A stretch of 64,000 nt of DNA from Escherichia phage vB_Eco_mar004NP2: sequence record NC_048205.1; one strand, written 5' to 3'. How positions within the stretch are numbered: the first letter of the stretch is position 1; each line of letters starts with the position of its first letter. Of this stretch, positions 1,041 to 53,469 are shown in pieces. The translations under genes were made by a program, and so were the position numbers. The notes beneath the pieces are model-generated. The model had not been told where the DNA came from. It did not search any database and worked only from the letters and a program-made list of their open reading frames with translations.

Positions 1041-1418
1041 ATGAACTATGCATATCTAATTATTAATAATAACGTAGTTTGTGGTACTCGCGCCGTTGAG
1101 ATGGGTATTACAGAAGAAAAGTATAAGTCACTTCCAGAAAAGGAACAACAATATTATGTTGAAGAAGCTGCTTGGGAATATGCTGATGTTTATCCCGAAC
1201 AGCGTGAAGATCGCGTTACTATTGTTGTCTCTTTGGGGCTGGTTGGCTGTGATACCGAAGTTGATACAGACCTAGAGACTTTAGAAGAGTGGGGAGAATT
1301 AGACATTTCAGCTAAAAACTCTTTAATCCGTGAGGCTTTTTGGGAAGCAGTTGACTGCCATGTTGTCTTTGAGCCTAACGATGAGGAAGCTGAGAAGCAT
1401 ACTAACCACTGGGGATAA
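1041..1418 (+). CDS. hypothetical early protein (125 aa)
   Basis: ORF with RBS AGGGG; acidic protein. Confidence 0.6.
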   Translation: MNYAYLIINNNVVCGTRAVEMGITEEKYKSLPEKEQQYYVEEAAWEYADVYPEQREDRVTIVVSLGLVGCDTEVDTDLETLEEWGELDISAKNSLIREAFWEAVDCHVVFEPNDEEAEKHTNHWG

Positions 1419-1422
1419 TTAA

Positions 1423-1668
1423 ATGTTAGCGGAACAAGCAAAACGTTTAGCTAGGATAAATAGAGCTGCAATTCTTAAGAGCAGAAAGAAACCATATAAG
1501 TATGTTAAAAAGAGAATAGTTTCTTCTGTGGAGATTGGAGGTTCTTTTGTACAGTTTAATCGTGATGAAATTAGTTATGAAGCTATAAAAGCCCTCTATA
1601 AAGAGGGTTATACTCTCCAACTATCTAATGAGTATGGCACAACTATTTTAACTGTTATTTGGGAATAA
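1423..1668 (+). CDS. hypothetical protein (81 aa)
   Basis: ORF tightly packed between neighbours. Confidence 0.5.
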   Translation: MLAEQAKRLARINRAAILKSRKKPYKYVKKRIVSSVEIGGSFVQFNRDEISYEAIKALYKEGYTLQLSNEYGTTILTVIWE

Positions 1669-2534
1669 TTATGAAAAAAGAATTTAATGTACATAAAACT
1701 CTAGTAGTGCCAGATGATGCCAACTTGTTTTTCGTTGGTGATATTCATGGATGCAATGATTTGCTGGAAGATGCGTTGAAATTAGCTGGGTATAATAGCA
1801 AGAAAGATTGCGTAGTATGTGTTGGTGACTTAATTGACCGGGGCACACAAAACTTACAAGTTTTAGCTAAATTCTTATATAATCCACGTTTTTGTAGCGT
1901 TCGTGGAAATCATGACCAGTTTATGATTGTAGGAGATTGGGCTAACTGGATGTATAATGGAGGTATGTGGGCTATGAATGAGCTGGACGCAGATACCATT
2001 AAAAATATTGCCGAAGACATGGCTGAAAAACTTCCAGTATTTATGACTGTGCTGCATCGTGGCAAGAAGTATGGTGTTGTTCATGGTGGTGTACCTTTTA
2101 CATACAAAGAATGTGGTAACGAAGTAGAAACTCCAGTATGGGATAACCTTATTGCACAAGTAGAAGCAGCTAAGGAAGACCCACATGACCATCCTGGATA
2201 CCATGTTGAACCATATTTATGGGATCGAGATGTAATACAAGAAATAGGCTTCCATTTGTCCAAAAATGGTGAGGAACACCCGTATTTCCAGCGTTATTCT
2301 GGGTTTAAAGAAAAATACATGGTAGAAATACCTCCAGTTAGTGGGGTAGACTTTGTGTTTCATGGGCATACTGGAGTACCTTACCCTATTTTACACCAAA
2401 ATCGTGTTTACTTAGATACTGGCGGTGTTTTCAACGGGCAGTTGACGGTTGCGCAAGTTAATGATGAAACTGGCAAAATCACAACATTTACCACGCTTCG
2501 CGAAGATAGCTGTGGCATACAGAGGATTCTTTAA
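1659..2534 (+). CDS. Ser/Thr protein phosphatase (calcineurin-like metallophosphatase)
   Basis: motifs GDIHG, GDLIDRG, GNHD read in translation; 291 aa. Confidence 0.8.
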   Translation: MGIIMKKEFNVHKTLVVPDDANLFFVGDIHGCNDLLEDALKLAGYNSKKDCVVCVGDLIDRGTQNLQVLAKFLYNPRFCSVRGNHDQFMIVGDWANWMYNGGMWAMNELDADTIKNIAEDMAEKLPVFMTVLHRGKKYGVVHGGVPFTYKECGNEVETPVWDNLIAQVEAAKEDPHDHPGYHVEPYLWDRDVIQEIGFHLSKNGEEHPYFQRYSGFKEKYMVEIPPVSGVDFVFHGHTGVPYPILHQNRVYLDTGGVFNGQLTVAQVNDETGKITTFTTLREDSCGIQRIL

Positions 2535-3055
2535 TGAAAGTCTGCTTTTGGAGCGATCTACACTTAGGACATGCAAATATTACTAAATTCAGACCAATCT
2601 TCTCTACTATGGAAGAGCATGATGAATTTATTATGGATACTATTACATCCATGAAAGATAAGCGTACAGTATTTTATATTTTAGGGGATGCATTTGTATC
2701 TAGAAATGGTTTGGAGAAATTCGAAAAACTCTTTAGTAATGTTAGAACTACATTAGTTTTGGGGAACCACGACTTAGAACGAGAAGGGTTATCTTTCAAA
2801 GACTTAGTGGGAGTTGTAGATAACGTACAATCCCTAGTTAAGTATAAAAACTTTTGGCTTTCCCATGCTCCAGTACATCCAGAAGAGTTAAGGGGCAAGA
2901 AGAACTTACATGGGCATACTCACTTTGAGTTAATGGGGGACCCTCGTTATATTAACGTTTGTGTAGAGTATGCAAAATCACCAGTACGCCTGGAAGACAT
3001 CATGAATGGTAAGTACACTTCTCATGATAAAACTAGCTGGATGTTAAATGTCTAA
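2534..3055 (+). CDS. small metallophosphoesterase-like protein
   Basis: DLHLGH, GNHD, HGHTH motifs; 173 aa; start overlaps upstream stop. Confidence 0.55.
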   Translation: MKVCFWSDLHLGHANITKFRPIFSTMEEHDEFIMDTITSMKDKRTVFYILGDAFVSRNGLEKFEKLFSNVRTTLVLGNHDLEREGLSFKDLVGVVDNVQSLVKYKNFWLSHAPVHPEELRGKKNLHGHTHFELMGDPRYINVCVEYAKSPVRLEDIMNGKYTSHDKTSWMLNV

Positions 3056-3163
3056 GTATATAGCTGAGGTTATTATTAAACGAATTATACAGGCGATAGC
3101 AATACTTATAATCATTTGTATTGCTATTGGCACAGGATTAGGCATTTTAATTGAAAGTTTTAT

Positions 3164-3192
3164 TTGCTAAAATGCCTAAGTTTCTGTATAAT
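3164..3192 (+). promoter_or_regulatory. sigma70-type promoter TTGCTA-N17-TATAAT
   Basis: -35 at 3164-3169, -10 at 3187-3192; conserved TTTATAAATTGATGAGAAGG downstream box. Confidence 0.55.
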
Positions 3193-3222: not shown

Positions 3223-3654
3223 ATGAACAAAGTTGATAAAGCTCTAGTTTTCACAGCAGCAGATAAGTTTGAACAAGTTAAGGCAACTTTCCGAACCTTG
3301 TTCCAGTCTTACGTTCAGGATAAGTCTAATCCTATCTCTGAACGTTTGATGGTCTGGGAATGTCATGCATGCAATGCCTTATTAATTGCTGATTATCGTA
3401 GCGATATAGATAAAGATCTGTGCGAAATTCTTATCGCTGAGGAGGCAGAACGTTATCAGTTAATCTCTTTCCAAGATTTGGCAGAGCATATCATTCCCGA
3501 TGATCTTTGGGATAAATACTATGGTGATCCTGAAGATGAAGGAATGACTCCAGAAGCATGCATTGAGCTGATCTGCAAAGATCATCCTGAAATTGCAGAG
3601 AAATTTGAAAAAGTTTTTGCTTCTGAGTTCTCCGGCGTTGTTAACGATTGGTAA
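3223..3654 (+). CDS. hypothetical early protein (143 aa)
   Basis: ORF with RBS GAAGGA. Confidence 0.6.
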   Translation: MNKVDKALVFTAADKFEQVKATFRTLFQSYVQDKSNPISERLMVWECHACNALLIADYRSDIDKDLCEILIAEEAERYQLISFQDLAEHIIPDDLWDKYYGDPEDEGMTPEACIELICKDHPEIAEKFEKVFASEFSGVVNDW

Positions 3655-5130: not shown

Positions 5131-5287
5131 GTATTTTGTATTACTGCCTCAGATTGTATTTCTAACAGCATTATTTAATATACTTTTTCGACATCTAGGA
5201 ATAACGGAAAATATCTTCTACACTTCTGGGCTACTTCCTTTTATGTACGAAGGCATCATCGTGGCAATTAACGGAGTTCGTAAATGA
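5087..5287 (+). CDS. small membrane protein (66 aa)
   Basis: strong RBS AAGGAGA; hydrophobic segment. Confidence 0.5.
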   Translation: MVKRLVYQAPKIVTEYFVLLPQIVFLTALFNILFRHLGITENIFYTSGLLPFMYEGIIVAINGVRK

Positions 5288-5745
5288 CAGCACTACAACA
5301 ACTACAGAATTACTGGTTTGATAACCAATTTAACGATCTCTTCATCCAGTTGTTTGTCGAAACGAACGGACGCTTCAACTACCGATTCTTTAATAAGTTT
5401 CACGAAACAAAATTCTCGCATACAGAAATTAATGCAGCAATCCAAGACCTAACTGGTTCTAAAGTAATTCAGTATCGTGAAGTAGACTTCACACCAGATT
5501 GTTTTGGGTTTGAATTGTTTAAGAAAGCGTATAAATTTGGTAAGTTTGAGGATGCTCGTCAATGGGTTCATGATTTCTGGTACAACACCGATATTGTCCC
5601 TAGTCGCGTGCTGATTCTTAACTGGATTGCTAAGCAACATCCACCTAAAACGCAATCATCCTTCTTACCGACTGACACAGGAAACCTCTACCATGACAGA
5701 AAAGAAAAACCCATTATTGGAGCAGATGAAGGAGTGGGAGAGTAA
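5284..5745 (+). CDS. hypothetical protein (153 aa)
   Basis: ORF, ATGA overlap with upstream gene. Confidence 0.55.
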   Translation: MTALQQLQNYWFDNQFNDLFIQLFVETNGRFNYRFFNKFHETKFSHTEINAAIQDLTGSKVIQYREVDFTPDCFGFELFKKAYKFGKFEDARQWVHDFWYNTDIVPSRVLILNWIAKQHPPKTQSSFLPTDTGNLYHDRKEKPIIGADEGVGE

Positions 5746-15663: not shown

Positions 15664-16071
15664 ATGACTAACGTTAAAACCGCAAAATTTGCTTGGAATG
15701 AAGAAAACACTCAAAAAGCTGTTTCTATGTACCAGCAGTTAATTAATGAAAACGGTTTAGATTTCGCAAATAGCGACGGTTTAAAAGAGATTGCAAAAGC
15801 AGTGGGCGCGTCTTCTCCCGTGTCTGTTCGCTCAAAATTGACCAGCGCAAAAGCGTATCAGAAAAGCGATAAGCCTCGCAAAGTTGGCGGCGGTAGCTCA
15901 ATCCGCAAAGCTCACTATGTACGCGTTATCGCTAAACATGCTATTGATTCCGGCATTATTAAAGACGCCGACGATCTGGCAAGTCTGGAAAGTGCAAAAC
16001 TTGAAACGCTGGACGCCGTAGCGCAACTGTTAGGCGTTGCCGATGAAGTAAAACAGGCCGCAGGTGAATAA
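15664..16071 (+). CDS. hypothetical pre-early protein (135 aa)
   Basis: ORF with conserved upstream box. Confidence 0.6.
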   Translation: MTNVKTAKFAWNEENTQKAVSMYQQLINENGLDFANSDGLKEIAKAVGASSPVSVRSKLTSAKAYQKSDKPRKVGGGSSIRKAHYVRVIAKHAIDSGIIKDADDLASLESAKLETLDAVAQLLGVADEVKQAAGE

Positions 16072-16422: not shown

Positions 16423-18087
16423 ATGATTATTTCCGCAGAAAAACAAACCGTTATCCTGAAAATGGCCGCTGACTTTAATTTCTATGGTAAACGTCTGCGC
16501 GCTACTAAACTGGAGGTCTGCGACGATATATCAAAAGCGGTCTACGATACAACAAAACACTCGACCGCTATCTGCGACTGGTTGGAAGCAAATAAACCAG
16601 CTAAACCGAAAGCGGCGAAAGTAGCAAAAGCCATTAAAAACGATGAGCGTCCAGAAGCGGCGGGGATTGTTTCTAGCACGGTTGAGCAATGGGAAGTAAA
16701 GCAGGGTAAACGCTTTATTATTACGTCGATTCAGAATAATACTTTCCCGCATAAAAACTTTTTAGCCTCATTGGAGCAATTTGCTAAATATATCGGCGCT
16801 GATTTGCTGGTTAGCAAGTTTATTTATAACAAAAACGGTTTTCAAAATGGCGAGGGTGCAGAAGGAATAAAATATGATTCCGCATTTGACAAATATATCT
16901 GCAATAAAAACGTGTTTTTAAATAACCGCCGTTTTGCTTTCATGGCTGAAATTAACGTTTTGCCAACCGCAGATTATCCGCTTTCTGGATTCGCTGAAAC
17001 TGCAACGGCGCTTAATCTGGAAGGTCTGGCAATTGGTCACGCTAAAATTACCGCTGAAAGCGTGCCAGCTTTAAAAGGTGAAGTAGTGCGCCGTATGTAC
17101 TCAACCGGAACGGCAACGCTCAAAAACTACATTCAGCAGAAAGCAGGACAAAAGGCCGAGGCGCTGCATAACTTCGGTGCGCTAATTGTCGAGTTCGACG
17201 AGGACGGGGAATTTTTTGTACGCCAGCTCGAAACGATGGACGAAAGCGGGGTATTTTATGATCTGAATGTGTGCGCTACTCCTGCCGGATGCTATGAGAC
17301 ATCGGGGCATGTTTTAGGCTTGCAATACGGCGATATTCACGCAGAAAAACTAGATGATGATTGTGCCGTTGCGTCATGGGCTGGCGAAAATAGCTTGCTT
17401 GATATTCTCAAGCCTAAATATCAGTTTATCCATGACGTGCATGATTTTACATCACGCAACCATCACAACCGCGCATCCGGTGTATTCCTAGCAAAACAAT
17501 ACGCCGCCGGACGTGATAAGGTATTAGATGATCTTATCGATACGGGGCGCGTGCTGGAATCAATGGAACGTGATTTCTCGCAAACAATCATTGTTGAATC
17601 TAATCACGATTTGGCGCTATCCCGTTGGCTTGATGATCGTAATGCTAACATTAAAGACGATCCAGCAAACGCGGAACTATATCACCGCCTAAATGCCGCG
17701 ATTTATGGAGCTATTGCAGAAAAAGACGATACTTTCAACGTGCTAGATTATGCGCTGCGCAAGGTTGCAGGTTGTGAGTTTAACGCCATTTTTCTAACTA
17801 CTGACCAATCTTTCAAGATTGCAGGCATTGAATGCGGCGTACACGGTCACAACGGCATTAACGGCAGCCGTGGCAATCCTAAACAATTTAAGAAATTGGG
17901 CAAATTAAACACCGGACACACTCACACCGCCAGCATTTATGGCGGCGTGTATACCGCTGGCGTAGCTGGTAGTCTGGACATGGGTTACAACGTTGGCGCG
18001 TCAAGCTGGACGCAAACGCATTTAATTACCTATGCAAACGGTCAGCGCACTTTGATTGACTTTAAAAACGGTAAATTCTTTGCGTAA
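16423..18087 (+). CDS. A1: A1-like pre-early protein (554 aa)
   Basis: size and position next to dmp-like gene as in T5 pre-early region; GDIH and GHNG motifs compatible with phosphoesterase-like fold (recalled, not searched). Confidence 0.6.
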   Translation: MIISAEKQTVILKMAADFNFYGKRLRATKLEVCDDISKAVYDTTKHSTAICDWLEANKPAKPKAAKVAKAIKNDERPEAAGIVSSTVEQWEVKQGKRFIITSIQNNTFPHKNFLASLEQFAKYIGADLLVSKFIYNKNGFQNGEGAEGIKYDSAFDKYICNKNVFLNNRRFAFMAEINVLPTADYPLSGFAETATALNLEGLAIGHAKITAESVPALKGEVVRRMYSTGTATLKNYIQQKAGQKAEALHNFGALIVEFDEDGEFFVRQLETMDESGVFYDLNVCATPAGCYETSGHVLGLQYGDIHAEKLDDDCAVASWAGENSLLDILKPKYQFIHDVHDFTSRNHHNRASGVFLAKQYAAGRDKVLDDLIDTGRVLESMERDFSQTIIVESNHDLALSRWLDDRNANIKDDPANAELYHRLNAAIYGAIAEKDDTFNVLDYALRKVAGCEFNAIFLTTDQSFKIAGIECGVHGHNGINGSRGNPKQFKKLGKLNTGHTHTASIYGGVYTAGVAGSLDMGYNVGASSWTQTHLITYANGQRTLIDFKNGKFFA

Positions 18088-18911: not shown

Positions 18912-19646
18912 ATGAATAAAGCTATCATGAATCTTTCCCGCAGCTTCCCGCATATTTCCCGCGTCATGATTTGGGATTTAGACGGCACTATCATTAATTC
19001 TTTCCATCGTGTAGCACCCTGCTTTGATAGCGAGGGCAATTTAGATTTAAATAAGTATAAAAATGAAGCGTGTAAACACCATTTAATAATGCAAGATACT
19101 TTATTGCCATTGGTTGAATATATGCGCCAGTGCATGAATGACGCAAATACTTTAAACATTATTTGCACCGCTCGACTGATGAGTAAGTCGGACTATTATT
19201 TCTTGCGTAAACAAGGGTTGCGCGGTCGTGGTAATAGTAATATCCGCGTATTTTCCCGCGATACACTACACAAATATTTTAAAGCTGATAAGGTTAGCGA
19301 AATATACCACAGCAAAGACGCAGTATATAAATCTTATTATTTTGAATTATTTAAACAGTTATATCCTAACGCTGATTTTACAATGATTGATGATCATAAA
19401 GGCGTGCTATCAGCGGCAGCGTCATACGGATTTAAAACGCTGGACGCACAAGCCGTTAATGATATTCTATCAATCGGCGTGGCATTGATAGGTGAAACCT
19501 TTATTGATGAATCTCTCGACGATGATAATGATTATCAATTCCTAGCTGACCGTTTAAAATTATGCTGGGAAGGTATGACCGAGGAAGAACGCGCAGAATA
19601 TAGTTGCAGTCCTCAACAATATATTGAGAAATTAAAAGTTGCCTAA
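18912..19646 (+). CDS. dmp: HAD-family 5'-deoxyribonucleotidase (dmp-like)
   Basis: N-terminal HAD motif I MIWDLDGTI; 244 aa. Confidence 0.7.
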   Translation: MNKAIMNLSRSFPHISRVMIWDLDGTIINSFHRVAPCFDSEGNLDLNKYKNEACKHHLIMQDTLLPLVEYMRQCMNDANTLNIICTARLMSKSDYYFLRKQGLRGRGNSNIRVFSRDTLHKYFKADKVSEIYHSKDAVYKSYYFELFKQLYPNADFTMIDDHKGVLSAAASYGFKTLDAQAVNDILSIGVALIGETFIDESLDDDNDYQFLADRLKLCWEGMTEEERAEYSCSPQQYIEKLKVA

Positions 19647-19798
19647 CAATTAAAGTTGAAATAGTCACGGTGTGTAATGATACCATGCCGTGACTATTAG
19701 CCTGCTAAGTACCGGGCGGTAATGAGACTCATTCTCATCTGGGGGGCCACTGGACACACCCACGCGTACGTAATCCAAAGAAATTGGCAAAAGTCAAA

Positions 19799-20044
19799 TT
19801 AGCGCATAGAAGGGTCATCAAACCTGTATTCTGGTCTGAACTCACGGAATCTCTTCCGCGACGCCCGAGATCCATCCGACCACTCCCGCTCAAACTCCGC
19901 ACGTTTCTCGTCAAACTTCCGCTCCCTTTCCGCAATCTCCCGCGTCACTCCCGCAATATATTTACGATGCTTATTGATTGCCGCAGTCGTCCCGAAAACT
20001 CCCGTGAGTATCCCGATAATAAAAGCAATTACAATACTAAACAT
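19799..20044 (-). CDS. small membrane protein with charged helical tail (81 aa)
   Basis: TM helix FSIVIAFIIGILTGVFGTTAA; 8-nt overlap with upstream ORF. Confidence 0.5.
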   Translation of the reverse strand: MFSIVIAFIIGILTGVFGTTAAINKHRKYIAGVTREIAERERKFDEKRAEFEREWSDGSRASRKRFREFRPEYRFDDPSMR

Positions 20045-20231
20045 CTAATTCCCTCTCAATTTGCAGAATACGGGTACTATCACAGCGTTGAAGCTCTACT
20101 AATTTTTCTAGTGCAAATTGTTGCTGCTTTACCTGGGCCTCTAGAGTTTTTAGGCGAACATACGCGGTATAAGAAACAATGAAAATTGCCCAGATTAATA
20201 TTACTATTAATGTAGCTGCCACTTCCATCAT
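20037..20231 (-). CDS. small membrane protein with coiled coil (64 aa)
   Basis: TM helix plus heptad-like tail; ATGA overlap with upstream ORF. Confidence 0.5.
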   Translation of the reverse strand: MMEVAATLIVILIWAIFIVSYTAYVRLKTLEAQVKQQQFALEKLVELQRCDSTRILQIERELDV

Positions 20232-20335
20232 TTACGTTTCTCCAGCAATAAAGTTTCAATTCTAGCTAAGTGATTATCTAAAATACATTGCCCAATAATC
20301 ACAATCCCTAATAGTGCAATAATTACCCATTCCAT
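20228..20335 (-). CDS. tiny membrane protein (35 aa), not in ORF track
   Basis: translated by hand; TAATG overlap with upstream ORF, ATGA with downstream. Confidence 0.35.
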   Translation of the reverse strand: MEWVIIALLGIVIIGQCILDNHLARIETLLLEKRK

Positions 20336-20463
20336 TAAATCCACCCCGCCATAGCTGCTAACCAAAAACCTACGAAAATAAAGAATAGGAGAGTTCCGAA
20401 CCCAAAACTATTTATCCAACTCTCATACACCTCTCCGCGTCTATTATTTCTTTTGTTTGACAT
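20335..20463 (-). CDS. tiny membrane protein (42 aa), not in ORF track
   Basis: translated by hand; RBS GGAG upstream; hydrophobic C-terminal half. Confidence 0.35.
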   Translation of the reverse strand: MSNKRNNRRGEVYESWINSFGFGTLLFFIFVGFWLAAMAGWI

Positions 20464-20630
20464 ATCTTTCGTGCTCCCATAAATGTGATATTTTAAAATA
20501 TGTGCATAACCAACCGTGCTTGTGGACTCCTAGAAGGACTTCTACTTTTCTTACATAGTGGTTTCTGCCAATATACCATCCAAGAAATAAAAAATTTAGT
20601 TTACTTGGATGTCTTTTTGTTTTATACTAA

Positions 20631-20897
20631 TTACAGGTAATTAGATTGCTCTAGTTTAAATTTACAATCACCATATTTAAGGTCAAACTGACTGAGATCC
20701 CACCACCCAAATTTAGTACGGAGCTGTACTACTGGAAAGCGATCTCCCTTAATACGAACTTTTTGAACCTTGAGACCGTAATATTCTTCTCCCGCACCAC
20801 CAAAAGATTTTACAAATCCCGTACAAAATGGTTTGGGAGCAGGTACACAACCAGATAATATAACTGTGGCAACTAGTGCAATTACAAACTTTTTCAT
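20631..20897 (-). CDS. llp: Llp-like lipoprotein (receptor-blocking, superinfection exclusion)
   Basis: signal peptide plus lipobox LSGC; 88 aa; divergent from receptor-binding protein gene, as in T5 llp/oad. Confidence 0.65.
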   Translation of the reverse strand: MKKFVIALVATVILSGCVPAPKPFCTGFVKSFGGAGEEYYGLKVQKVRIKGDRFPVVQLRTKFGWWDLSQFDLKYGDCKFKLEQSNYL

Positions 20898-20982
20898 ATT
20901 TATCTCTCCATTTCTAATTTATGAATTTATTATAGCAAAATAGAGGGATGAAAGCAAATACATTTTTATAATAGGAGATTAT

Positions 20983-22740
20983 ATGGGTTTTTTCGCTGGA
21001 AAGTATAGCGATGGTAAGACCGTACTATCTTTAAATACTGAATCTGGGGGTGACATTAATCGTCACTATAGTCCAAGTAATAATAGTATTTTTCATAGTG
21101 ATATGCCATTTGTTCTAGTTGAGGGTACTTATGAGGCAGGATTAGGTGATGCCGGGAATGGGTTTTTCGTATGTCAGATGCCTCCTGATATAGTAAATAT
21201 TAAATCTAATGATCCTGGTAGAGTTATACTAACTGCTATTGAGATTAATGGTACTCACAGAGCTTTTCTTAATGGTACTCAGAGTAAAGTTGGTCAAACT
21301 ATAGTTGCCACTCAAGCAGACCCCTTTAGATCTTTTGCTAGTGTTTCTCAAACCAGTGGATTTGCATTTGGTAATAGTCTAGCATCTGGAACTTATAATT
21401 ATAACCCATCGATAGGGCACGAAGAATCTATCTCTAGGAGTGGTACAGGTGGTACTACGTTACATAGTACCTACCATGGGATAGTTAGGCCTGGTGCGGG
21501 AGCTCCTGTAGGTGTTACTGTTGCAGAAGCCTTTGCACAATTAGGTTTTCCTACTAATAGTAGCACAGTACCTGTAGATGGGAATAACCCGTACTATTGG
21601 GATCCTGGATGGATGTCGCCTCTAGGAGCAGCACATAGAGGGCATGATTGGTTTTATGTTTGCAACTCTAATATACGTGGATACGGTGGGGTTAGACAAG
21701 GGCTCCCAGGTAATGTAAATACTATGTACCACGACGGTGGGAACAGATTTGTTTGTAGGGGATCTACTACTAATTTAGCTAACCAGTCGGGTGACTCTAC
21801 AATACTACAGGATTGGTATAATATAACCCCTACTAAGGTTATTTGGTATGTTCTTAATTTAAGGTACTCTAATGGTGGAATGAGTATTTCAGGCAACCCC
21901 TTTACTGGTTCTGATATTCTTATATCTCCTTCTAATTTCATAATTAAAGGGGTAAGTCTCCCTAATACCGGGTATAAATTTATAAATCAGAATGCTTTTG
22001 GTAACCTAGGTTACCGTCCTGATATGGAGTATATAGGAAATAACGCAGCGTATACCGGGGTTTTTGGGGATACCACGGCAAGGTGTGAACTTGTAGGGTC
22101 TAGTAATGGAGGATTATGGTCTCCTGTAGACTATGGTGGAGCTAAATCCCAAATTAGCATTTACAAATTCGGAGCTGGTAAGCAATGGTATGTAAACTCT
22201 AGGGATAATACTATCGGTAATGAACACGGGGTTGTTTGGGGACCATCAGCAGTTCCATTACGACTTTTTGGTGGAAATGTAGGTAGCTCTTACATGGGGG
22301 ATGATATTACTCCCAGCTACCCGGGAACAGGGGATAGATACGTTGGTTTATCAACTATTGGGCTAGGTATACCGGGTGGCAATGCTACAGTAATTCTTAC
22401 CACTGAAGTTATATCAGGTAACCTTAACTGTGCAGGTGTTCCTGCTAATACATGGAATAACGGTGTGTTTCAAGTGCAAGGAAGAAGAGCATATAGCTAT
22501 AGTAATGGAGATGCAATATTCCACCAGATTTTAACATTACCAGTAGGGTATTTAGTACCTTTTCATACTACATCTGCTTTTAGGTACACACCTAACAATG
22601 CCCTAAGTAGAAATAGTTTTATATATACTGCTAAAAATCTGGGGAATGGAAATGTAGAGTTAGGGGTAGTTATGCACGTAAGTTTAGGTAGTGCAGTTTT
22701 CCTACCGAGATTAAGAGTAACAGTTCAACGCCTTACCTAA
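20983..22740 (+). CDS. receptor-binding tail protein (pb5/Oad-like)
   Basis: 585 aa Gly/Asn/Ser-rich protein divergent from llp-like gene; first gene of late block. Confidence 0.6.
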
Positions 22741-22750
22741 AGGAGGAAAT

Positions 22751-23233
22751 ATGGCAAATGATGTATTAGTACCAGATCTTATGTCCCCTGAAGGGATGGA
22801 TGTAATTGAAGCATATTTACAGTGTGGCAGCGATGTGCCTTCTGCCGCACGTAGTCTTGGGATGTCCGAAATTGCTTTTCGAGATATTATGAATCGTAGT
22901 GAAGTTAAGAACTACTTAAATGATATTTTTATGGAGAGTGGTTTCCGTAACAGAGATCGTTTATTTGGTGTTCTGGATGAAGTTATCAAGCGTAAACTAG
23001 AGGAACTAGAAGAAACTGGCATGGGTTCTGACCAAGATATTATGGATATTCTCTGGAAAGCACATAAAATGAAAATGGAAGAAATGAAAATGATGGTAGA
23101 ACTGGAGAAAGTGAAGGCAGCAGCCCGTACTCCAGCTAACCAGACCAACATCCAGAATAATATTATTGCTGGAGCTGGGGATCAAAACTACATGGACTTA
23201 ATTACTTCCCTAGCTACTGGAGGTAAGAAGTAA
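22751..23233 (+). CDS. putative terminase small subunit (160 aa)
   Basis: immediately upstream of and coupled to terminase large subunit; positional. Confidence 0.4.
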
Positions 23234-24549
23234 TGGAAGTATCAAGACCTTACGTTAATACAGTAGATGTTATTGATTTCGGAATAGATAAACGTTTCTT
23301 TCGTCTACCTGTTTCGGGAATACTAGCACAAGAAGGTATTACACCTAATGGTCCTCAAATAGCGATTATTAATGCTCTAGAGGATCCTAGACATCGTTTT
23401 GTAACGGCGTGTGTATCACGCCGTGTAGGTAAATCCTTCATCGCATATACTCTTGGGTTCCTAAAATTGCTGGAACCTAATGTGAAGGTGTTAGTAGTTG
23501 CTCCTAACTATTCACTGGCCAACATCGGATGGTCTCAGATTCGTGGTCTTATTAAAAAATATGGCCTACAAACTGAACGTGAGAACGCTAAAGATAAGGA
23601 AATTGAGTTAGCTAATGGTTCTCTGTTTAAACTAGCTTCCGCTGCTCAGGCTGACTCCGCGGTTGGACGTTCATATGATTTTATCATCTTTGACGAGGCG
23701 GCAATTTCCGATGTGGGTGGTGATGCCTTCAGGGTTCAGCTGCGTCCTACTCTAGATAAACCTAATTCTAAGGCTCTATTTATTTCCACACCTCGTGGAG
23801 GTAACTGGTTTAAAGAGTTTTACGCCTACGGATTTGATGATACGTTGCCTAACTGGGTATCTATTCATGGTACATATCGTGATAACCCTCGTGCTGACCT
23901 GAATGATATAGAAGAAGCACGTCGTACGGTTAGTAAAAACTACTTCCGCCAGGAATATGAAGCTGACTTCTCTGTATTTGAAGGTCAGATTTTTGATACT
24001 TTCAATGCTATTGACCATGTTAAAGACCTTAAGGGTATGCGTCATTTCTTTAAAGATGATGAAGCATTCGAAACGTTGCTTGGTATCGACGTTGGTTATC
24101 GTGATCCTACAGCAGTTCTTACTATTAAGTATCATTACGATACGGATACTTACTATGTATTAGAAGAGTATCAGCAGGCGGAGAAAACTACAGCTCAGCA
24201 TGCTGCTTACATTCAGCACTGTATAGATCGTTATAAAGTTGATCGTATTTTTGTTGACTCCGCGGCAGCTCAGTTCCGTCAAGACTTAGCTTATGAGCAT
24301 GAAATTGCATCAGCTCCAGCTAAAAAATCTGTCCTAGATGGCCTAGCATGCCTGCAAGCACTGTTCCAACAGGGTAAGATTATTGTAGATGCCTCATGCT
24401 CCTCCTTAATTCATGCACTGCAGAACTATAAGTGGGACTTCCAAGAAGGTGAAGAGAAATTATCACGTGAAAAACCACGTCATGATGCTAATTCTCACCT
24501 TTGTGATGCGCTGCGCTATGGAATTTACTCTATTTCCCGTGGTAAATAA
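23233..24549 (+). CDS. terL: terminase large subunit
   Basis: 438 aa; Walker A-like SRRVGKS; position upstream of portal. Confidence 0.8.
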   Translation: MEVSRPYVNTVDVIDFGIDKRFFRLPVSGILAQEGITPNGPQIAIINALEDPRHRFVTACVSRRVGKSFIAYTLGFLKLLEPNVKVLVVAPNYSLANIGWSQIRGLIKKYGLQTERENAKDKEIELANGSLFKLASAAQADSAVGRSYDFIIFDEAAISDVGGDAFRVQLRPTLDKPNSKALFISTPRGGNWFKEFYAYGFDDTLPNWVSIHGTYRDNPRADLNDIEEARRTVSKNYFRQEYEADFSVFEGQIFDTFNAIDHVKDLKGMRHFFKDDEAFETLLGIDVGYRDPTAVLTIKYHYDTDTYYVLEEYQQAEKTTAQHAAYIQHCIDRYKVDRIFVDSAAAQFRQDLAYEHEIASAPAKKSVLDGLACLQALFQQGKIIVDASCSSLIHALQNYKWDFQEGEEKLSREKPRHDANSHLCDALRYGIYSISRGK

Positions 24550-50672: not shown

Positions 50673-52511
50673 TTATTCTAAGTAGGAAAATCCTTCTGCA
50701 TCTTTTTTGACAGTAATCTTATGGGCCAATGGATGCGTATGCCCATGAGAAACAATGATAGAGTTTAGACTTTCTTCCTCATTTAATAATTCAACAAGGG
50801 TGTCAAGTCCTTTCGTATCAATAAAGCTAATTACTTCATCAAGGAATAGAAGATTAATATTAACTTTACTAATAGATGTTAGTAGCATTCGAATAGCTAA
50901 CAGAGTTGCTAGGTTGATTCGACTTTGCTGACCAGTAGAGCAGTTCTCCATACTGGTACGGTTTCCATCATTGAAGATTACTACTTGTAATTTTGTTTCA
51001 TCAAGTTCAAATCCAAGTGCGAACTTACCACCAGTCATAATGGAAAGGTATTTATTAATTAGTTCTTCAAATACTTTCACACTATGCTCTAGCTTATACC
51101 CTACCAGATTTTTCAATGCGGCGATCAGAATATCGAGATCAGCAACAGCTTCTGATACTTCATCCAGTTTGGAAGTAATCTCAGACATTTCTGCCTCAGC
51201 TTTCTCAATCTGTTCTAGTTTCGCTTTATATTTTGCATTGGCTAATTCAACATTTGCATTATGCTCTTTGGCAATTGCAACCTTAGAACGTCCATCAGCA
51301 ATTTCCTGTTCTAATTGTCGTATTTGCACCTGTAGGTTTTGCACATTGAGTTCTTCAAAAGAAGCATCACTCATTGAATTTTTGAACTCGTCTCTAGCTG
51401 CTACTGCTTTATCCAAAGCATCCTTTGCTCTAATATACGTAGTGTACTCAAGTTGTTCTTTCTTCAGCTGTTCTAGCTTGGTTTCAAGAGATTGCTTCTC
51501 TTTGAACAGAGGATCATATTCTGTTCTAGCCATATCCATTGCTTTTTGAGCAGCAGTTGTATCCAGGTGAGTACCACAAGTAGGACATTCAGTATTTGAA
51601 GCCTCTTGCTTGAACTTCTGATAACGTTTCTTGACTTCGCCCGCACGTGAGGTCACAATCGTTAGGTCACGCGTAACACTCGAGATCTCTTCATTTTGGT
51701 CGGTGGGCGCAGGCAAATTTTTGAAAGGCTCGAAAGATTGTTCGGCAACTTGTACAGCTTTGTCCAAATTACGCAATTTAGTAATATTAGCCTCTTGAGA
51801 CTTGGCTAATGCCGCCTTAATTTTCGATTCTGTAAGTTCTTGTGCTAATGGTTCTTCATCAAATTCTGGTACTTCGACTGGTTCTTGTAAGGTTCCCAAG
51901 TTATTCTTTCCATTAAGGATTTTTGTAATTACAGCCATTTGGCCCTGCAAATTATTTAAGGTATTTGCTATTTCTTTACGGTCAGCCTTAATAGTTTCTG
52001 ACATTTCTTTATACTGTTCTTGATTGAACAAGTTAACAAGAAAAGCCTTACGTGTTGCATCTGTTGCTTTGAGGAAGTCTAGATTGGAACCAACAGATTG
52101 ATAGATTAGTTTAGTGAATGTTTGGAAGTCACCACCCATAATCTCTTCAATCATCTTGTACGTTTGAGTTGCTGTGTGTCCACTGATATCTTCTCCATTC
52201 TTAATCAGTGTAACCTTAGCAGTTGATTTAACTACTTTATGCAATTCATACTCATCTTCATCTTTCGAGAAGTAAGCATGCATATCATACTCTTTCTTCG
52301 GAGAACCCCAAGAGAATAGGGCGTCCTTCTTGATACCACGTGAGTTCTTGTTATAAAACAATTCCTCAATAACAGTAGCAATAGTGGACTTCCCTAGACC
52401 GTTTCCTCCGATTAACTGAGTAACTGGATTCTTATCGAAATGAATTACGATGTCCCTACCGTAAGACATAACGTTACTAAATTTTAGTGTCTTAATTGTA
52501 ATCTTTGACAT
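50673..52511 (-). CDS. SbcC/Rad50-like ATPase
   Basis: Walker A GGNGLGKST, long coiled-coil middle, C-terminal D-loop LFLDEV; start trimmed to MSKITIKTLKF. Confidence 0.8.
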   Translation of the reverse strand: MSKITIKTLKFSNVMSYGRDIVIHFDKNPVTQLIGGNGLGKSTIATVIEELFYNKNSRGIKKDALFSWGSPKKEYDMHAYFSKDEDEYELHKVVKSTAKVTLIKNGEDISGHTATQTYKMIEEIMGGDFQTFTKLIYQSVGSNLDFLKATDATRKAFLVNLFNQEQYKEMSETIKADRKEIANTLNNLQGQMAVITKILNGKNNLGTLQEPVEVPEFDEEPLAQELTESKIKAALAKSQEANITKLRNLDKAVQVAEQSFEPFKNLPAPTDQNEEISSVTRDLTIVTSRAGEVKKRYQKFKQEASNTECPTCGTHLDTTAAQKAMDMARTEYDPLFKEKQSLETKLEQLKKEQLEYTTYIRAKDALDKAVAARDEFKNSMSDASFEELNVQNLQVQIRQLEQEIADGRSKVAIAKEHNANVELANAKYKAKLEQIEKAEAEMSEITSKLDEVSEAVADLDILIAALKNLVGYKLEHSVKVFEELINKYLSIMTGGKFALGFELDETKLQVVIFNDGNRTSMENCSTGQQSRINLATLLAIRMLLTSISKVNINLLFLDEVISFIDTKGLDTLVELLNEEESLNSIIVSHGHTHPLAHKITVKKDAEGFSYLE

Positions 52512-53469
52512 ATTTCGCAGCTCTAGCCAAGATTCTATCAATGTCGCCTTGAGACAGCTTCTCGACTTCACGGAAGTAAAGTTCAAGTTCCCCTAACATA
52601 TCAAGATCAACAAGATTTAACTTAGCGTCTTTAGTAACTCGATGGTTAATCTTCTTATCTAACAAATCAGAGTCTTTAATAGACTTTAATTGAACAACGT
52701 CACCAGTAACTTCATAGACTACACGATCATAATCACTAGGTTCCATCTCTTCACCTGCTCCGATTGTTTTACGAATCAGTTGTGGTAAATCACCTAGTTC
52801 AATCCATTCTACTTTTAATGTGTCGGTATCAATGATAAAGCAACCATTTGTACCTTTTGTGCGTTCTCTATGGAACGATGTAGTTAATGGAGATCCTGGG
52901 TAGAGAAGTCTAGTAGATCCGATAGTCTGGCTATTAGTATAAGAATGTAAATCGCCAGCAATTACAGTATCATAACAGTTGTACTTAGTTAGATCAATTT
53001 CTGGTTTTACATGTGGAGGGATTTCACCACGAACATGCGTGAAACATAGTTTTGATACAGGAGGTTTCCACTTAGATTTATGGATTTCGTCATATGGAAC
53101 AATATCAAATTCAGGGGAACGATATGGTTTGGTAATTACTTCCCACTTACCACTCGTTACTTTATTAATAACTCCTGCATAATGATATAGGCATGAAATA
53201 GTCTTAGTTATTAATTCATGATTACCTGTAAATACCATTCCTATATGATCTAGCCTAGACATAAATTTTTCTAGAAGTTCTACTTCTTCCGACGACGGGT
53301 CGGAATGATCAAATAAATCACCACCAATAATATGCAAATCACAGTTATGATTATGGAATATATCATTTAACCGTTCTCCTAGCATCAGGAAGCGACGCTT
53401 CTGCCATTCTTTGGGTATCTTATCTTGGCCCAGCTTAATATGATGATCAGCACTAAATAATATTCTCAT
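52492..53469 (-). CDS. SbcD/Mre11-like nuclease
   Basis: MRILFSADHH and GDLFD metallophosphatase motifs; 325 aa. Confidence 0.8.
   Translation of the reverse strand: MRILFSADHHIKLGQDKIPKEWQKRRFLMLGERLNDIFHNHNCDLHIIGGDLFDHSDPSSEEVELLEKFMSRLDHIGMVFTGNHELITKTISCLYHYAGVINKVTSGKWEVITKPYRSPEFDIVPYDEIHKSKWKPPVSKLCFTHVRGEIPPHVKPEIDLTKYNCYDTVIAGDLHSYTNSQTIGSTRLLYPGSPLTTSFHRERTKGTNGCFIIDTDTLKVEWIELGDLPQLIRKTIGAGEEMEPSDYDRVVYEVTGDVVQLKSIKDSDLLDKKINHRVTKDAKLNLVDLDMLGELELYFREVEKLSQGDIDRILARAAKYVKDYN

Follow-up and report, generated by a model that had tools for sequence, protein, structure and literature searches.

Two adjacent metallophosphoesterase genes in a predicted early transcription unit

The window analyzed here, a 64,000-nucleotide stretch of Escherichia phage vB_Eco_mar004NP2 (NC_048205.1), derives from a T5-like phage with 99.9% identity to Salmonella phages SPLA5b and PMBT29. 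Based on the list of open reading frames (ORFs), a scan for promoters and terminators, and the annotation of T5, a packed early transcription unit was delineated on the plus strand (1041..3170) that contains, in order, a 125-aa ORF, an 81-aa ORF (T5.036), two genes referred to here as gene 1 and gene 2, and a 40-aa hydrophobic ORF. The consensus promoter and terminator scan placed a terminator-like hairpin (919-946) and a promoter-like site (3164-3192) at the edges of this unit, and promoters and one terminator are annotated at the equivalent positions of the T5 record. From these sequence features we infer the transcript boundaries of the unit. An initial annotation, made from the DNA letters alone, had described two adjacent metallophosphatase-type genes with the same order of motifs at this locus, and both ORFs proved to be real, with motif matches far beyond those expected by chance.

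Direct reading of the sequence at the junction of the two genes (2521..2536, plus strand) revealed an AGAGGA Shine-Dalgarno sequence for gene 2 at 2521-2526, within the 3' end of gene 1, followed by a TAATG in which the stop codon of gene 1 (2532-2534) and the start codon of gene 2 (2534-2536) overlap by 1 nt. The two genes are likewise annotated with a 1-nt overlap in T5 and chee24. This combination of TAATG and an internal Shine-Dalgarno sequence is an arrangement typical of translational coupling. Annotation of both genes, and of the A1 protein discussed below, already exists in T5 (T5.035, T5.034, and A1) and in hundreds of relatives. The identification is in this respect correct but ordinary, as T5.035 and T5.034 are already labeled Ser/Thr phosphatase and phosphoesterase, respectively, and A1 is in print as a predicted metallo-phosphatase.

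Gene 1 encodes a lambda phosphatase-type enzyme

Gene 1 (1671..2534, plus strand; 864 nt) encodes a 287-aa protein that was assigned from Pfam, PHROG, and Protein Data Bank (PDB) matches as a lambda-phosphatase/NinI-like metallophosphatase of the PPP family. It is the ortholog of T5.035 (orf5c), with 276 of 287 residues identical (96%), and its computed mass of 32.6 kDa agrees with the published 32 kDa. The ORF had initially been drawn from a TTG at 1659; the ORF itself stands, and the ATG at 1671 is the more likely start codon because it lies 2 nt past the upstream stop codon, follows a GGGA at a distance of 6 nt, and corresponds to the start codon of the T5 and chee24 genes.

The protein contains the PPP motifs GDIHG (residues 23-27), GDLIDRG (52-58), and GNHD (79-82), and superfamily motifs I-V occur in order (D24/H26, D53, N80/H81, H138, and H233). 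It matches the Pfam Metallophos family (PF00149) with an E-value of 9.5e-16 (59.2 bits against a gathering cut-off of 21.5) and PHROG 246, annotated as 'NinI-like', with an E-value of 3.4e-92. Lambda phosphatase (PDB 1G5B) was matched with an E-value of 2.8e-32 in two stretches that cover the catalytic core, and this alignment gives D24, H26, D53, R57, N80, H81, H138, and H233 as the catalytic set. By its signatures and its full-length similarity, the protein belongs to the calcineurin-like superfamily and, within it, to the lambda-phosphatase/NinI type of PPP enzymes, which bears out the earlier description of gene 1 as a Ser/Thr phosphatase. Further matches to NCBIfam models of the E. coli PrpA/PrpB type (E-values of 5.8e-28 and 8.9e-22) indicate a relationship only, as the scores of 98.4 bits for NF008516 and 77.8 bits for NF007425 fall far below the respective equivalog cut-offs of 326 and 332 bits. 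Weak resemblance was also detected to ApaH Ap4A hydrolases (E-value of 1.7e-9) and to a Pnkp model (E-value of 1.2e-8).

All of the lambda phosphatase (NinI/ORF221) signatures, namely GDxHG, GDxxDRG, GNH[DE], the motif IV His, and GH, are present in gene 1, but the two proteins are only about 30% identical and lambda phosphatase is 221 aa in length. Gene 1 carries about 65 extra residues between H138 of motif IV and H233 of motif V, compared with about 18 unaligned residues in lambda phosphatase. The genes also differ in location, with gene 1 in the early region of a lytic phage and lambda phosphatase in the nin region. By family resemblance, gene 1 would bind a pair of Mn2+ ions through D24, H26, D53, N80, H138, and H233, with H81 acting as a general acid and R57 binding phosphate, and most likely cleaves phosphomonoesters on proteins. 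Lambda phosphatase itself is also active in vitro on esters other than phosphoproteins, among them 2',3'-cyclic phosphodiesters (PMC2190708). Given these side activities and the weaker similarity to ApaH, it is conceivable that gene 1 acts on a substrate other than a protein.

The classical C2 mutation of T5 has been mapped to ORF T5.035, and C2 is genetically, if indirectly, tied to the composition of the RNA polymerase complex in the switch from early to late genes (PMC7472727). The label in the DT571/2 record also ties the ortholog of gene 1 to C2. Gene 1 is thereby linked to a question about T5 that is decades old, namely how RNA polymerase is switched from early to late genes. The conditional-lethal mutants that defined C2 are in conflict with the lack of a fitness cost upon knock-down of T5.035.

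Gene 2 encodes a small nuclease/phosphodiesterase-like enzyme

Gene 2 (2534..3055, plus strand) encodes a 173-aa, 20.1-kDa protein that was assigned from Pfam, PHROG, and a structural model as a binuclear metallophosphoesterase (MPE) of the aq_1665/PHROG 547 family. It is the ortholog of T5.034 (168 of 173 residues identical), and its motifs follow the same order as those of gene 1: D8-x-H10, G51-D52, G77-N78-H79-D80, H111, and G127-H128-x-H130. The protein scores 29.9 bits against PF00149, above the gathering cut-off of 21.5, and matches PHROG 547, 'phosphoesterase', over its full length (residues 1-171; E-value of 5.1e-55). The family comprises at least 757 homologs. If the second protein had lost its metal-binding residues, its description as a metallophosphatase would have to be abandoned. 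Alignment of 46 diverse homologs (37-95% identity) instead revealed that D8, H10, H13, G51, D52, G77, N78, H79, D80, H111, P113, H115, H128, H130, and Y139 are invariant, a set that includes all seven metal ligands (D8, H10, D52, N78, H111, H128, and H130) and the catalytic H79. The AlphaFold2 model is a complete and confident domain (pLDDT of 96.3) with the MPE fold.

The features of gene 2 are not those of a PPP protein phosphatase, as it has SDLHLGH in place of GDxHG and GDAFVS in place of GDxxDRG, and has no pairwise similarity to gene 1. A motif I of the DLHLG type is typical of Mre11, SbcD, PdeM, and LpxH. When the model was searched with Foldseek, the structural-genomics protein aq_1665 of Aquifex aeolicus (1XM7) was the nearest match (E-value of 2e-10, TM-score of 0.71), followed by Mre11 (5.5e-5) and the Pseudomonas putida nuclease MPE/PdeM (6NVO; 5.9e-5). 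Together with LpxH these matches span E-values of 2e-10 to 5e-4, whereas lambda phosphatase was found only at rank 36 with an E-value of 0.07. A profile of the gene 2 family also matched 1XM7 (E-value of 7.6e-19), and PdeM was the top NCBIfam match (E-value of 3.7e-9). From sequence and modeled structure, gene 2 is accordingly placed in the nuclease/phosphodiesterase-type branch of the superfamily and is not regarded as a second protein phosphatase. The initial description of the 173-aa protein thus holds for the metallophosphoesterase assignment and the intact metal site, and fails with respect to a second protein phosphatase. Because several records name both genes 'serine/threonine phosphatase', this placement amounts to a correction of the annotation of gene 2.

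The D-x-H-x-x-H, GD, GNHD, SH-x-P, and GH-x-H motifs are shared with aq_1665, but this bacterial protein is only 23% identical to gene 2, has an insertion before motif V, and gives no functional clue. Nuclease MPE/PdeM and Mre11/SbcD, the second-best structural matches (E-values of about 5e-5), share the DLHLG-type motif I, and this resemblance suggests phosphodiesterase or nuclease chemistry, but the matches are distant, with TM-scores of only 0.46-0.51. Gene 2 in T5-like phages also lacks a capping domain, a Rad50/SbcC partner, and ligase or helicase neighbors. Assignment as a PdeM/nuclease MPE equivalog (TIGR04123) was rejected on the basis of a score of 36.3 against a 150-bit cut-off and of neighbors that, in T5-like phages, are small genes of unknown function. 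Membership in the mycobacteriophage Gp48/gp47 DNase family was likewise rejected, with hhalign probabilities of 5-9% and alignment of motif V only. By family resemblance, the target of gene 2 is most likely a phosphodiester, located either at the end of a nucleic acid or in a compound derived from nucleotides, rather than a phosphoprotein.

A1 and an SbcD-like protein are further superfamily members in the window

The pre-early protein A1 (16423..18087, plus strand; 554 aa) had been proposed as a possible third member, and its fold and conserved motifs substantiate this. A divergent metallophosphoesterase domain occupies its C-terminal half (approximately residues 297-554; nt 17311-18087, plus strand), with the MPE fold and the conserved ligand-bearing motifs in canonical order. 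Neither Pfam nor NCBIfam returned a Metallophos match for A1, and phmmer and profile searches of the PDB sequences returned no MPE match. The protein shares 94% identity with the A1 proteins of T5-like phages, and its mass of 61.2 kDa agrees with that of the classical 60-kDa RNA polymerase-associated pre-early protein. T5 A1, described in the literature as a predicted metallo-phosphatase involved in host DNA degradation and second-step transfer, is the same protein, and the fold and invariant motifs confirm that prediction. As A1 is reported to be both necessary and sufficient for host DNA degradation, its catalytic domain is likely the DNase that degrades host DNA.

The matches listed for the A1 profile search were all strong and full-length. 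In an hhalign comparison, residues 336-555 of A1 aligned with residues 39-248 of mycobacteriophage Bxb1 gp47 (probability of 87%, E-value of 3.9e-6, 182 columns, 26% identity) with motifs II-V collinear; motif I is excluded from this alignment, and the gp47 profile is shallow, as no member falls below 61% identity to Bxb1 gp47. In the cluster-A mycobacteriophage metallophosphoesterase family to which gp47 belongs (Bxb1 gp47 RDF, L5 gp54, and A10ZJ24 Gp48), the early phage protein Gp48 is a toxic DNase that breaks down host DNA, as A1 is reported to do in vivo. The proteins differ in motif I, which is D10-x-Q12 in gp47 and D304-x-H306 in A1, outside the alignment, and A1 is longer by about 300 residues at its N terminus. 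This tentative profile-level link between the catalytic domain of A1 and the gp47/Gp48 DNase family is possibly new. If it is true, A1 gains a biochemically characterized relative, and metallophosphoesterases that degrade the host chromosome would be a weapon common to very different groups of phages.

A motif scan of the whole window identified a fourth metallophosphoesterase, overlooked in the initial annotation, at 52492-53469 on the minus strand. This 325-aa protein contains the motifs DHH...GGDLFD...GNHE and matches PF00149 with an E-value of 7.9e-9. Its ORF overlaps that of an SbcC/Rad50-like ATPase (50673..52586, minus strand), which was identified by matches to the Pfam families AAA_23 (E-value of 6.3e-11), SMC_N (1.3e-7), and SbcC_Walker_B (4.8e-4). 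With a Metallophos domain and an adjacent SbcC/Rad50-type ATPase, the 325-aa protein is an SbcD-like recombination nuclease subunit of the SbcD/Mre11 type, which probably corresponds to D13 of T5.

The two genes are probably independent accessory functions

Homologs of gene 2 are present in 1,044 phage records and those of gene 1 in 1,325, and their taxonomic spread differs. The genes occur together, separated by 0-3 genes, in Tequintavirus, Epseptimavirus, and Myunavirus. Klebsiella phage Sealy and Vibrio phage D332 have gene 1 without gene 2; in D332, the 161-aa ORF downstream of the phosphatase does not encode a homolog of gene 2. Gene 2, whose neighborhoods were taken from look-ups of individual contigs, is present without gene 1 in phage 7-11, in a Kayvirus, and in four phage contigs from metagenomes, and proteins of its type (PHROG 547) extend from Demerecviridae to Kayvirus and actinophages with the active site always intact. 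Because each gene is found without the other and their spread differs, they were counted as independent. Both T5.034 and T5.035 were scored 'Not Fit' in a CRISPRi-ART knock-down screen of T5, and both genes were therefore counted as accessory. Upon BLASTP comparison, the two proteins had no similarity beyond an HGHT motif (E-value of 2.2), and by sequence we regard them as evolutionarily distinct members of the superfamily rather than related copies.

These observations are best explained, in our view with good probability, by two co-transcribed and translationally coupled early genes that encode distinct binuclear metallophosphoesterases with independent accessory functions, adjacent by happenstance in one phage lineage rather than through duplication or as parts of an obligate module, with A1 as the third and the SbcD-like protein as the fourth member of the superfamily in this phage. 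The conserved gene order, together with the coupling in Tequintavirus, could reflect a functional link, which this explanation discounts. Both genes belong to very common phage enzyme families.

Among the members of the metallophosphoesterase superfamily are cyclic-nucleotide phosphodiesterases, including Rv0805, YfcE, and MJ0936. One or both of the two enzymes could serve in counter-defense, with either gene hydrolyzing immune messengers (cyclic oligonucleotides, cyclic nucleoside monophosphates, or Ap4A-type alarmones) or gene 1 undoing phosphorylation by a host defense kinase. The weaker structural matches to gene 2 include Rv0805 (E-value of 2e-3), gene 1 secondarily resembles ApaH, and both genes are, as is typical of anti-defense genes, early, dispensable on a laboratory host, and patchy among lytic phages. 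We nevertheless consider this reading unlikely, as the better structural neighbors of gene 2 are nucleases and LpxH rather than cyclic-nucleotide phosphodiesterases, a PADLOC scan of all four metallophosphoesterases returned no defense-model matches, and a literature search on the function of T5.034/T5.035, the roles of NinI, and phage phosphatases in defense returned only the C2 mapping, use as a phylogenetic marker, and CRISPRi-ART fitness, with no anti-defense role for either family. Phage enzymes known to degrade such messengers, for example Acb1 and Apyc1, have other folds. The broader suggestion that the phage deploys its phosphoesterases in concert against host phosphoproteins or nucleotide signals found no support in the PADLOC result, in the tie of A1 to host DNA degradation, or in the nuclease character of the fourth member. 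As a speculative extension to which we assign little probability, the T5.034-type enzyme (PHROG 547; more than 1,000 lytic phage genomes) may be a widely used counter-defense phosphodiesterase directed at a nucleotide immune signal or a nucleic acid end made by a defense system, and might act jointly with the translationally coupled C2 phosphatase in T5-like phages.

A functional link of another kind would be a two-step module, for example one in which opening of a cyclic or diester phosphate by the phosphodiesterase is followed by removal of the resulting monoester by the lambda-phosphatase-like enzyme, on broken RNA or tRNA ends or on a nucleotide-derived compound. The 1-nt overlap and the internal Shine-Dalgarno sequence suggest coupled, stoichiometric expression, the order of the genes is conserved in three genera of Demerecviridae, and an unrelated 98-kb phage contig (L004) carries a gene 2 homolog directly adjoining another metallophosphoesterase. 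Lambda phosphatase and the phosphatase domain of Pnkp are 2',3'-cyclic phosphodiesterases/monoesterases (PMC2190708), and there is a weak match between gene 1 and the Pnkp model. Each gene nevertheless occurs without the other, and one to three unrelated small genes intervene in Epseptimavirus and Myunavirus. The second Metallophos gene on contig L004 was rejected as evidence of conserved pairing, as it is MPPED2-like rather than lambda-phosphatase-like, and thus no specific pairing recurs. We regard such a module as quite improbable. Adjacent genes with an identical order of motifs could also have arisen by tandem duplication, with the 173-aa protein as a truncated or degenerate and possibly catalytically dead copy of the phosphatase, but this is refuted almost entirely by the BLASTP result, the separate PHROGs and different structural neighbors of the two proteins, the invariant metal ligands of so large a family, and the completeness of the modeled domain. 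On contig L004, the distant gene 2 homolog also adjoins a DNA ligase and a helicase.

The adjacent phosphatase and phosphoesterase genes

The two adjacent metallophosphatase-type genes described in the initial annotation are both present as open reading frames (ORFs), with matches to the Pfam Metallophos model of 59 bits for the first and 29.9 bits (threshold 21.5) for the second. The 1.9-kb stretch holding them shares 99.9% identity with Salmonella phages SPLA5b and PMBT29 and 93–95% with many T5-like phages (Tequintavirus, Demerecviridae), and T5-like records annotate it as encoding a "serine/threonine protein phosphatase" followed by a "phosphoesterase". The first gene (1671–2534(+); 287 aa, 32.6 kDa) is T5.035 of phage T5, with 276 of 287 residues identical. 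Its start was initially placed at a TTG at 1659, probably 12 nt too early; the ATG at 1671 is preferred because it lies 2 bases after the upstream stop, is preceded by GGGA at a distance of 6 nt, and serves as the annotated start in T5 and chee24. The encoded protein had been called a Ser/Thr phosphatase from the motifs GDIHG (residues 23–27), GDLIDRG (52–58), and GNHD (79–82), and this assignment holds in matches to PHROG 246, "NinI-like serine-threonine phosphatase" (E 3.4e-92), and to lambda phosphatase (1G5B, E 2.8e-32), with every catalytic motif inside the latter alignment. As judged from sequence, it is most likely a PPP phosphomonoesterase that depends on Mn2+ and acts on phosphoproteins. 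It may also act on non-protein substrates, as lambda phosphatase has 2',3'-cyclic phosphodiesterase activity as well (PMC2190708) and the T5.035 protein weakly resembles ApaH.

The second gene (2534–3055(+); 173 aa) is T5.034, with 168 of 173 residues identical, and its product matches PHROG 547, "phosphoesterase" (E 5.1e-55). It starts on the last base of the T5.035 stop codon (TAATG), with an AGAGGA Shine-Dalgarno sequence within the end of the upstream gene. Loss of metal-binding residues from its product, a concern raised in the initial annotation, is not seen: in an alignment of 46 homologs (37–95% identity to the query) from 757 collected, the invariant residues are D8, H10, H13, G51, D52, G77, N78, H79, D80, H111, P113, H115, H128, H130, and Y139, which include the complete canonical ligand set of a binuclear metallophosphoesterase and the catalytic histidine, and the protein therefore looks like an active enzyme. 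Neither gene is a copy of the other, as BLASTP between their products aligned only an HGHT motif (E 2.2), the T5.034 protein has SDLHLGH and GDAFVS at the positions of GDxHG and GDxxDRG in PPP phosphatases, and their structural neighbours differ. The AlphaFold model of the T5.034 protein (pLDDT 96.3, pTM 0.91) best matched Aquifex aq_1665 (E 2e-10, TM 0.71), itself a protein without known function, followed by Pyrococcus furiosus Mre11 (E 5.5e-5), the Pseudomonas putida single-stranded DNA endonuclease MPE (E 5.9e-5), and then Methanocaldococcus jannaschii Mre11 and LpxH; lambda phosphatase was matched with E 0.07 at best. The family profile also matched aq_1665 (E 7.6e-19), and the best NCBIfam model was that of PdeM, a ligase-associated endonuclease, at 36 bits against a cut-off of 150. 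Together, the motifs, structural neighbours, and profile matches point to a small phosphodiesterase/nuclease-type enzyme outside every characterised family, most likely a minimal binuclear phosphodiesterase whose nearest characterised relatives, by comparison of the predicted structure, cut nucleic acids. Records that name it a second "serine/threonine phosphatase" (e.g., IrisVonRoten and SuperGirl) are probably mislabelled.

Distribution and published phenotypes

Searches with tblastn found relatives of the T5.035 ortholog in 1,325 records, including lambda, P7, rV5-like phages, Vibrio phages, and jumbo phages, and relatives of the T5.034 ortholog in 1,044 phage records, spanning T5-like phages, Staphylococcus Kayvirus, Acinetobacter and Aeromonas myoviruses, Bacillus phages, and actinophages. 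Across Demerecviridae the phosphatase gene consistently precedes the phosphoesterase gene; direct overlap of the two genes is specific to Tequintavirus-type genomes, with three small genes intervening in Epseptimavirus SuperGirl and one in Myunavirus My1. Klebsiella phage Sealy and Vibrio phage D332 carry the first gene with no copy of the second within 2.5 kb, and phage 7-11, a Kayvirus, and four metagenomic phage contigs carry the second with no copy of the first nearby. Given these differences in spacing and the separate occurrences, the two genes are accessory functions that can occur apart, not parts of an obligate module. A different pairing is found in an unrelated 98-kb phage-like contig (L004:5001–6112), where the stop codon of a T5.034 homolog overlaps the start codon of a downstream gene for a 212-aa metallophosphoesterase resembling MPPED2 (E 1.6e-42 to the rat protein). 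This pair differs from the T5-like arrangement both in its partner and in its DNA-metabolism context, directly after DNA ligase and helicase genes and before dNMP kinase and DNA polymerase A genes.

T5.035 (orf5c) has previously been used as a phylogenetic marker. Klimuk et al. (PMC7472727) report that the classical C2 mutation maps to the 32-kDa putative Ser/Thr phosphatase ORF; RNA polymerase preparations from C2 mutants lack a 90-kDa early protein (PMC7472727), so any role in transcription control would be indirect. The GenBank record of phage DT571/2 labels the T5.035 ortholog C2. The C2 mutation was reportedly isolated as conditional-lethal. In a CRISPRi-ART screen of T5, both T5.035 and T5.034 were scored "Not Fit" (−4.78 and −3.90), knock-down being harmless on the laboratory host. 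These scores fit accessory genes yet are hard to square with a conditional-lethal C2. A literature search found neither biochemical nor anti-defence data for the two families.

A1 and a fourth metallophosphoesterase

The GDIH-type motifs initially noted in the pre-early protein A1 (16423–18087(+); 554 aa, 61.2 kDa) were borne out: the protein carries YGDIHAE, and G303-D304-x-H306, H337-D338, S393-N394-H395-D396, H474, and H499-x-H501 are retained without exception in 32 aligned homologs, the most distant at 42% identity. Sequence models (Pfam, NCBIfam, and PDB sequences) did not recognize A1 as a metallophosphoesterase, and Foldseek matches to its model were weak (E at least 0.03). The alignment and these weak matches agree with a 2026 preprint in which A1 is predicted to be a metallo-phosphatase sharing features with double-strand-break repair nucleases and with the proofreading subunits of polymerases, and is shown to be both necessary and sufficient for degrading the host chromosome in vivo. 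A1 is most likely the host-DNA-degrading nuclease, the in vivo effect being published and the nuclease activity predicted. According to the preprint, A1 occurs predominantly within Demerecviridae. Clustered at 50% identity, the family has 2,485 representatives with E ≤ 1e-3 (1,626 with E ≤ 1e-30), and is much larger than the T5 relatives alone; one homolog outside Demerecviridae (L012:6001–7680) lies between primase-helicase and DNA polymerase genes on a 45-kb T7-like contig that encodes S-AdoMet lyase, T7 kinase, primase-helicase, and DNA polymerase A.

The A1 catalytic domain (17311–18087, about residues 297–554) aligned by hhalign with gp47 of phage Bxb1 (L003:6021–6788(-)) at 87% probability (E 3.9e-6, 182 columns); in control comparisons, the T5.034 family gave 5% with gp47 and 48%, over 24 columns only, with A1. 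Bxb1 gp47 and A10ZJ24 Gp48 belong to a cluster-A mycobacteriophage metallophosphoesterase/RDF family, and experiments have shown Gp48 to be a toxic early DNase that breaks down host DNA, an activity abolished by D10G, D41V, and H175D. D41 and H175 are invariant in the gp47 alignment and correspond to A1 D338 and H499. A specific relationship between the A1 catalytic domain and the gp47/Gp48 family is suggestive rather than established, as the gp47 profile is shallow and the alignment takes in motifs II–V with motif I unaligned. The link is absent from the 2026 A1 preprint.

A motif scan of all six frames of the window yielded one further candidate, which adds a fourth metallophosphoesterase to the three initially listed: a 325-aa SbcD/Mre11-like protein (52492–53469(-); Pfam Metallophos E 7.9e-9), whose ORF overlaps a gene for an SbcC/Rad50-like ATPase (50673–52586(-)). 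This pair probably corresponds to D13/D12, the recombination nuclease pair of T5. The SbcD-like protein most likely functions as a recombination nuclease. PADLOC models matched none of the four enzymes. The initial suggestion that the phage deploys several phosphoesterases stands; for three of them nothing supports the proposed action on host phosphoproteins or nucleotide signals, and for the T5.035 ortholog it is unproven. The original observation was correct, its interpretation partly so, and its content was already known.

Gene layout around the pair and the terminal repeat

Between the thioredoxin-operon terminator and the T5.036 ortholog lies a 125-aa acidic ORF (1041–1418(+), PHROG 6798) that is present in chee24 and absent from T5, which has a promoter and terminator there. 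Both PHROG 7354 and RefSeq records of T5-like phages give the T5.036 ortholog (1423–1668(+); 81 aa, pI 9.8), just upstream of the phosphatase gene, the label "major head protein"; for an early-region protein of this size, that is almost certainly an annotation error copied from record to record. A 40-aa hydrophobic ORF (3048–3170(+), PHROG 21849) overlaps the end of the T5.034 ortholog by 8 nt; downstream of it come a promoter-like site and the gene for a DUF7020 protein (3223–3654(+), E 2.2e-45). The product of an ORF at 5284–5745(+), 2.2 kb downstream of the C2 phosphatase gene, is identical at 152 of 153 residues to T5.026, whose binding to RNA polymerase and control of the early-to-late switch have been published (PMC7472727).

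The early region runs in the reverse direction relative to T5 and is followed by the pre-early terminal-repeat genes A2 (15664–16071), A1, and dmp (18912–19646(+)), and then by late genes. For the dmp (dNMP phosphatase) ortholog, the PHROG match is to family 415, labelled "polynucleotide kinase" (E 8.6e-57), and Pfam gives only a weak match to a HAD domain. Late genes (19650–23300), comprising a 585-aa ORF and terminase, directly follow dmp, so either the terminal repeat is collapsed in the assembly or the assembly is circularly permuted.
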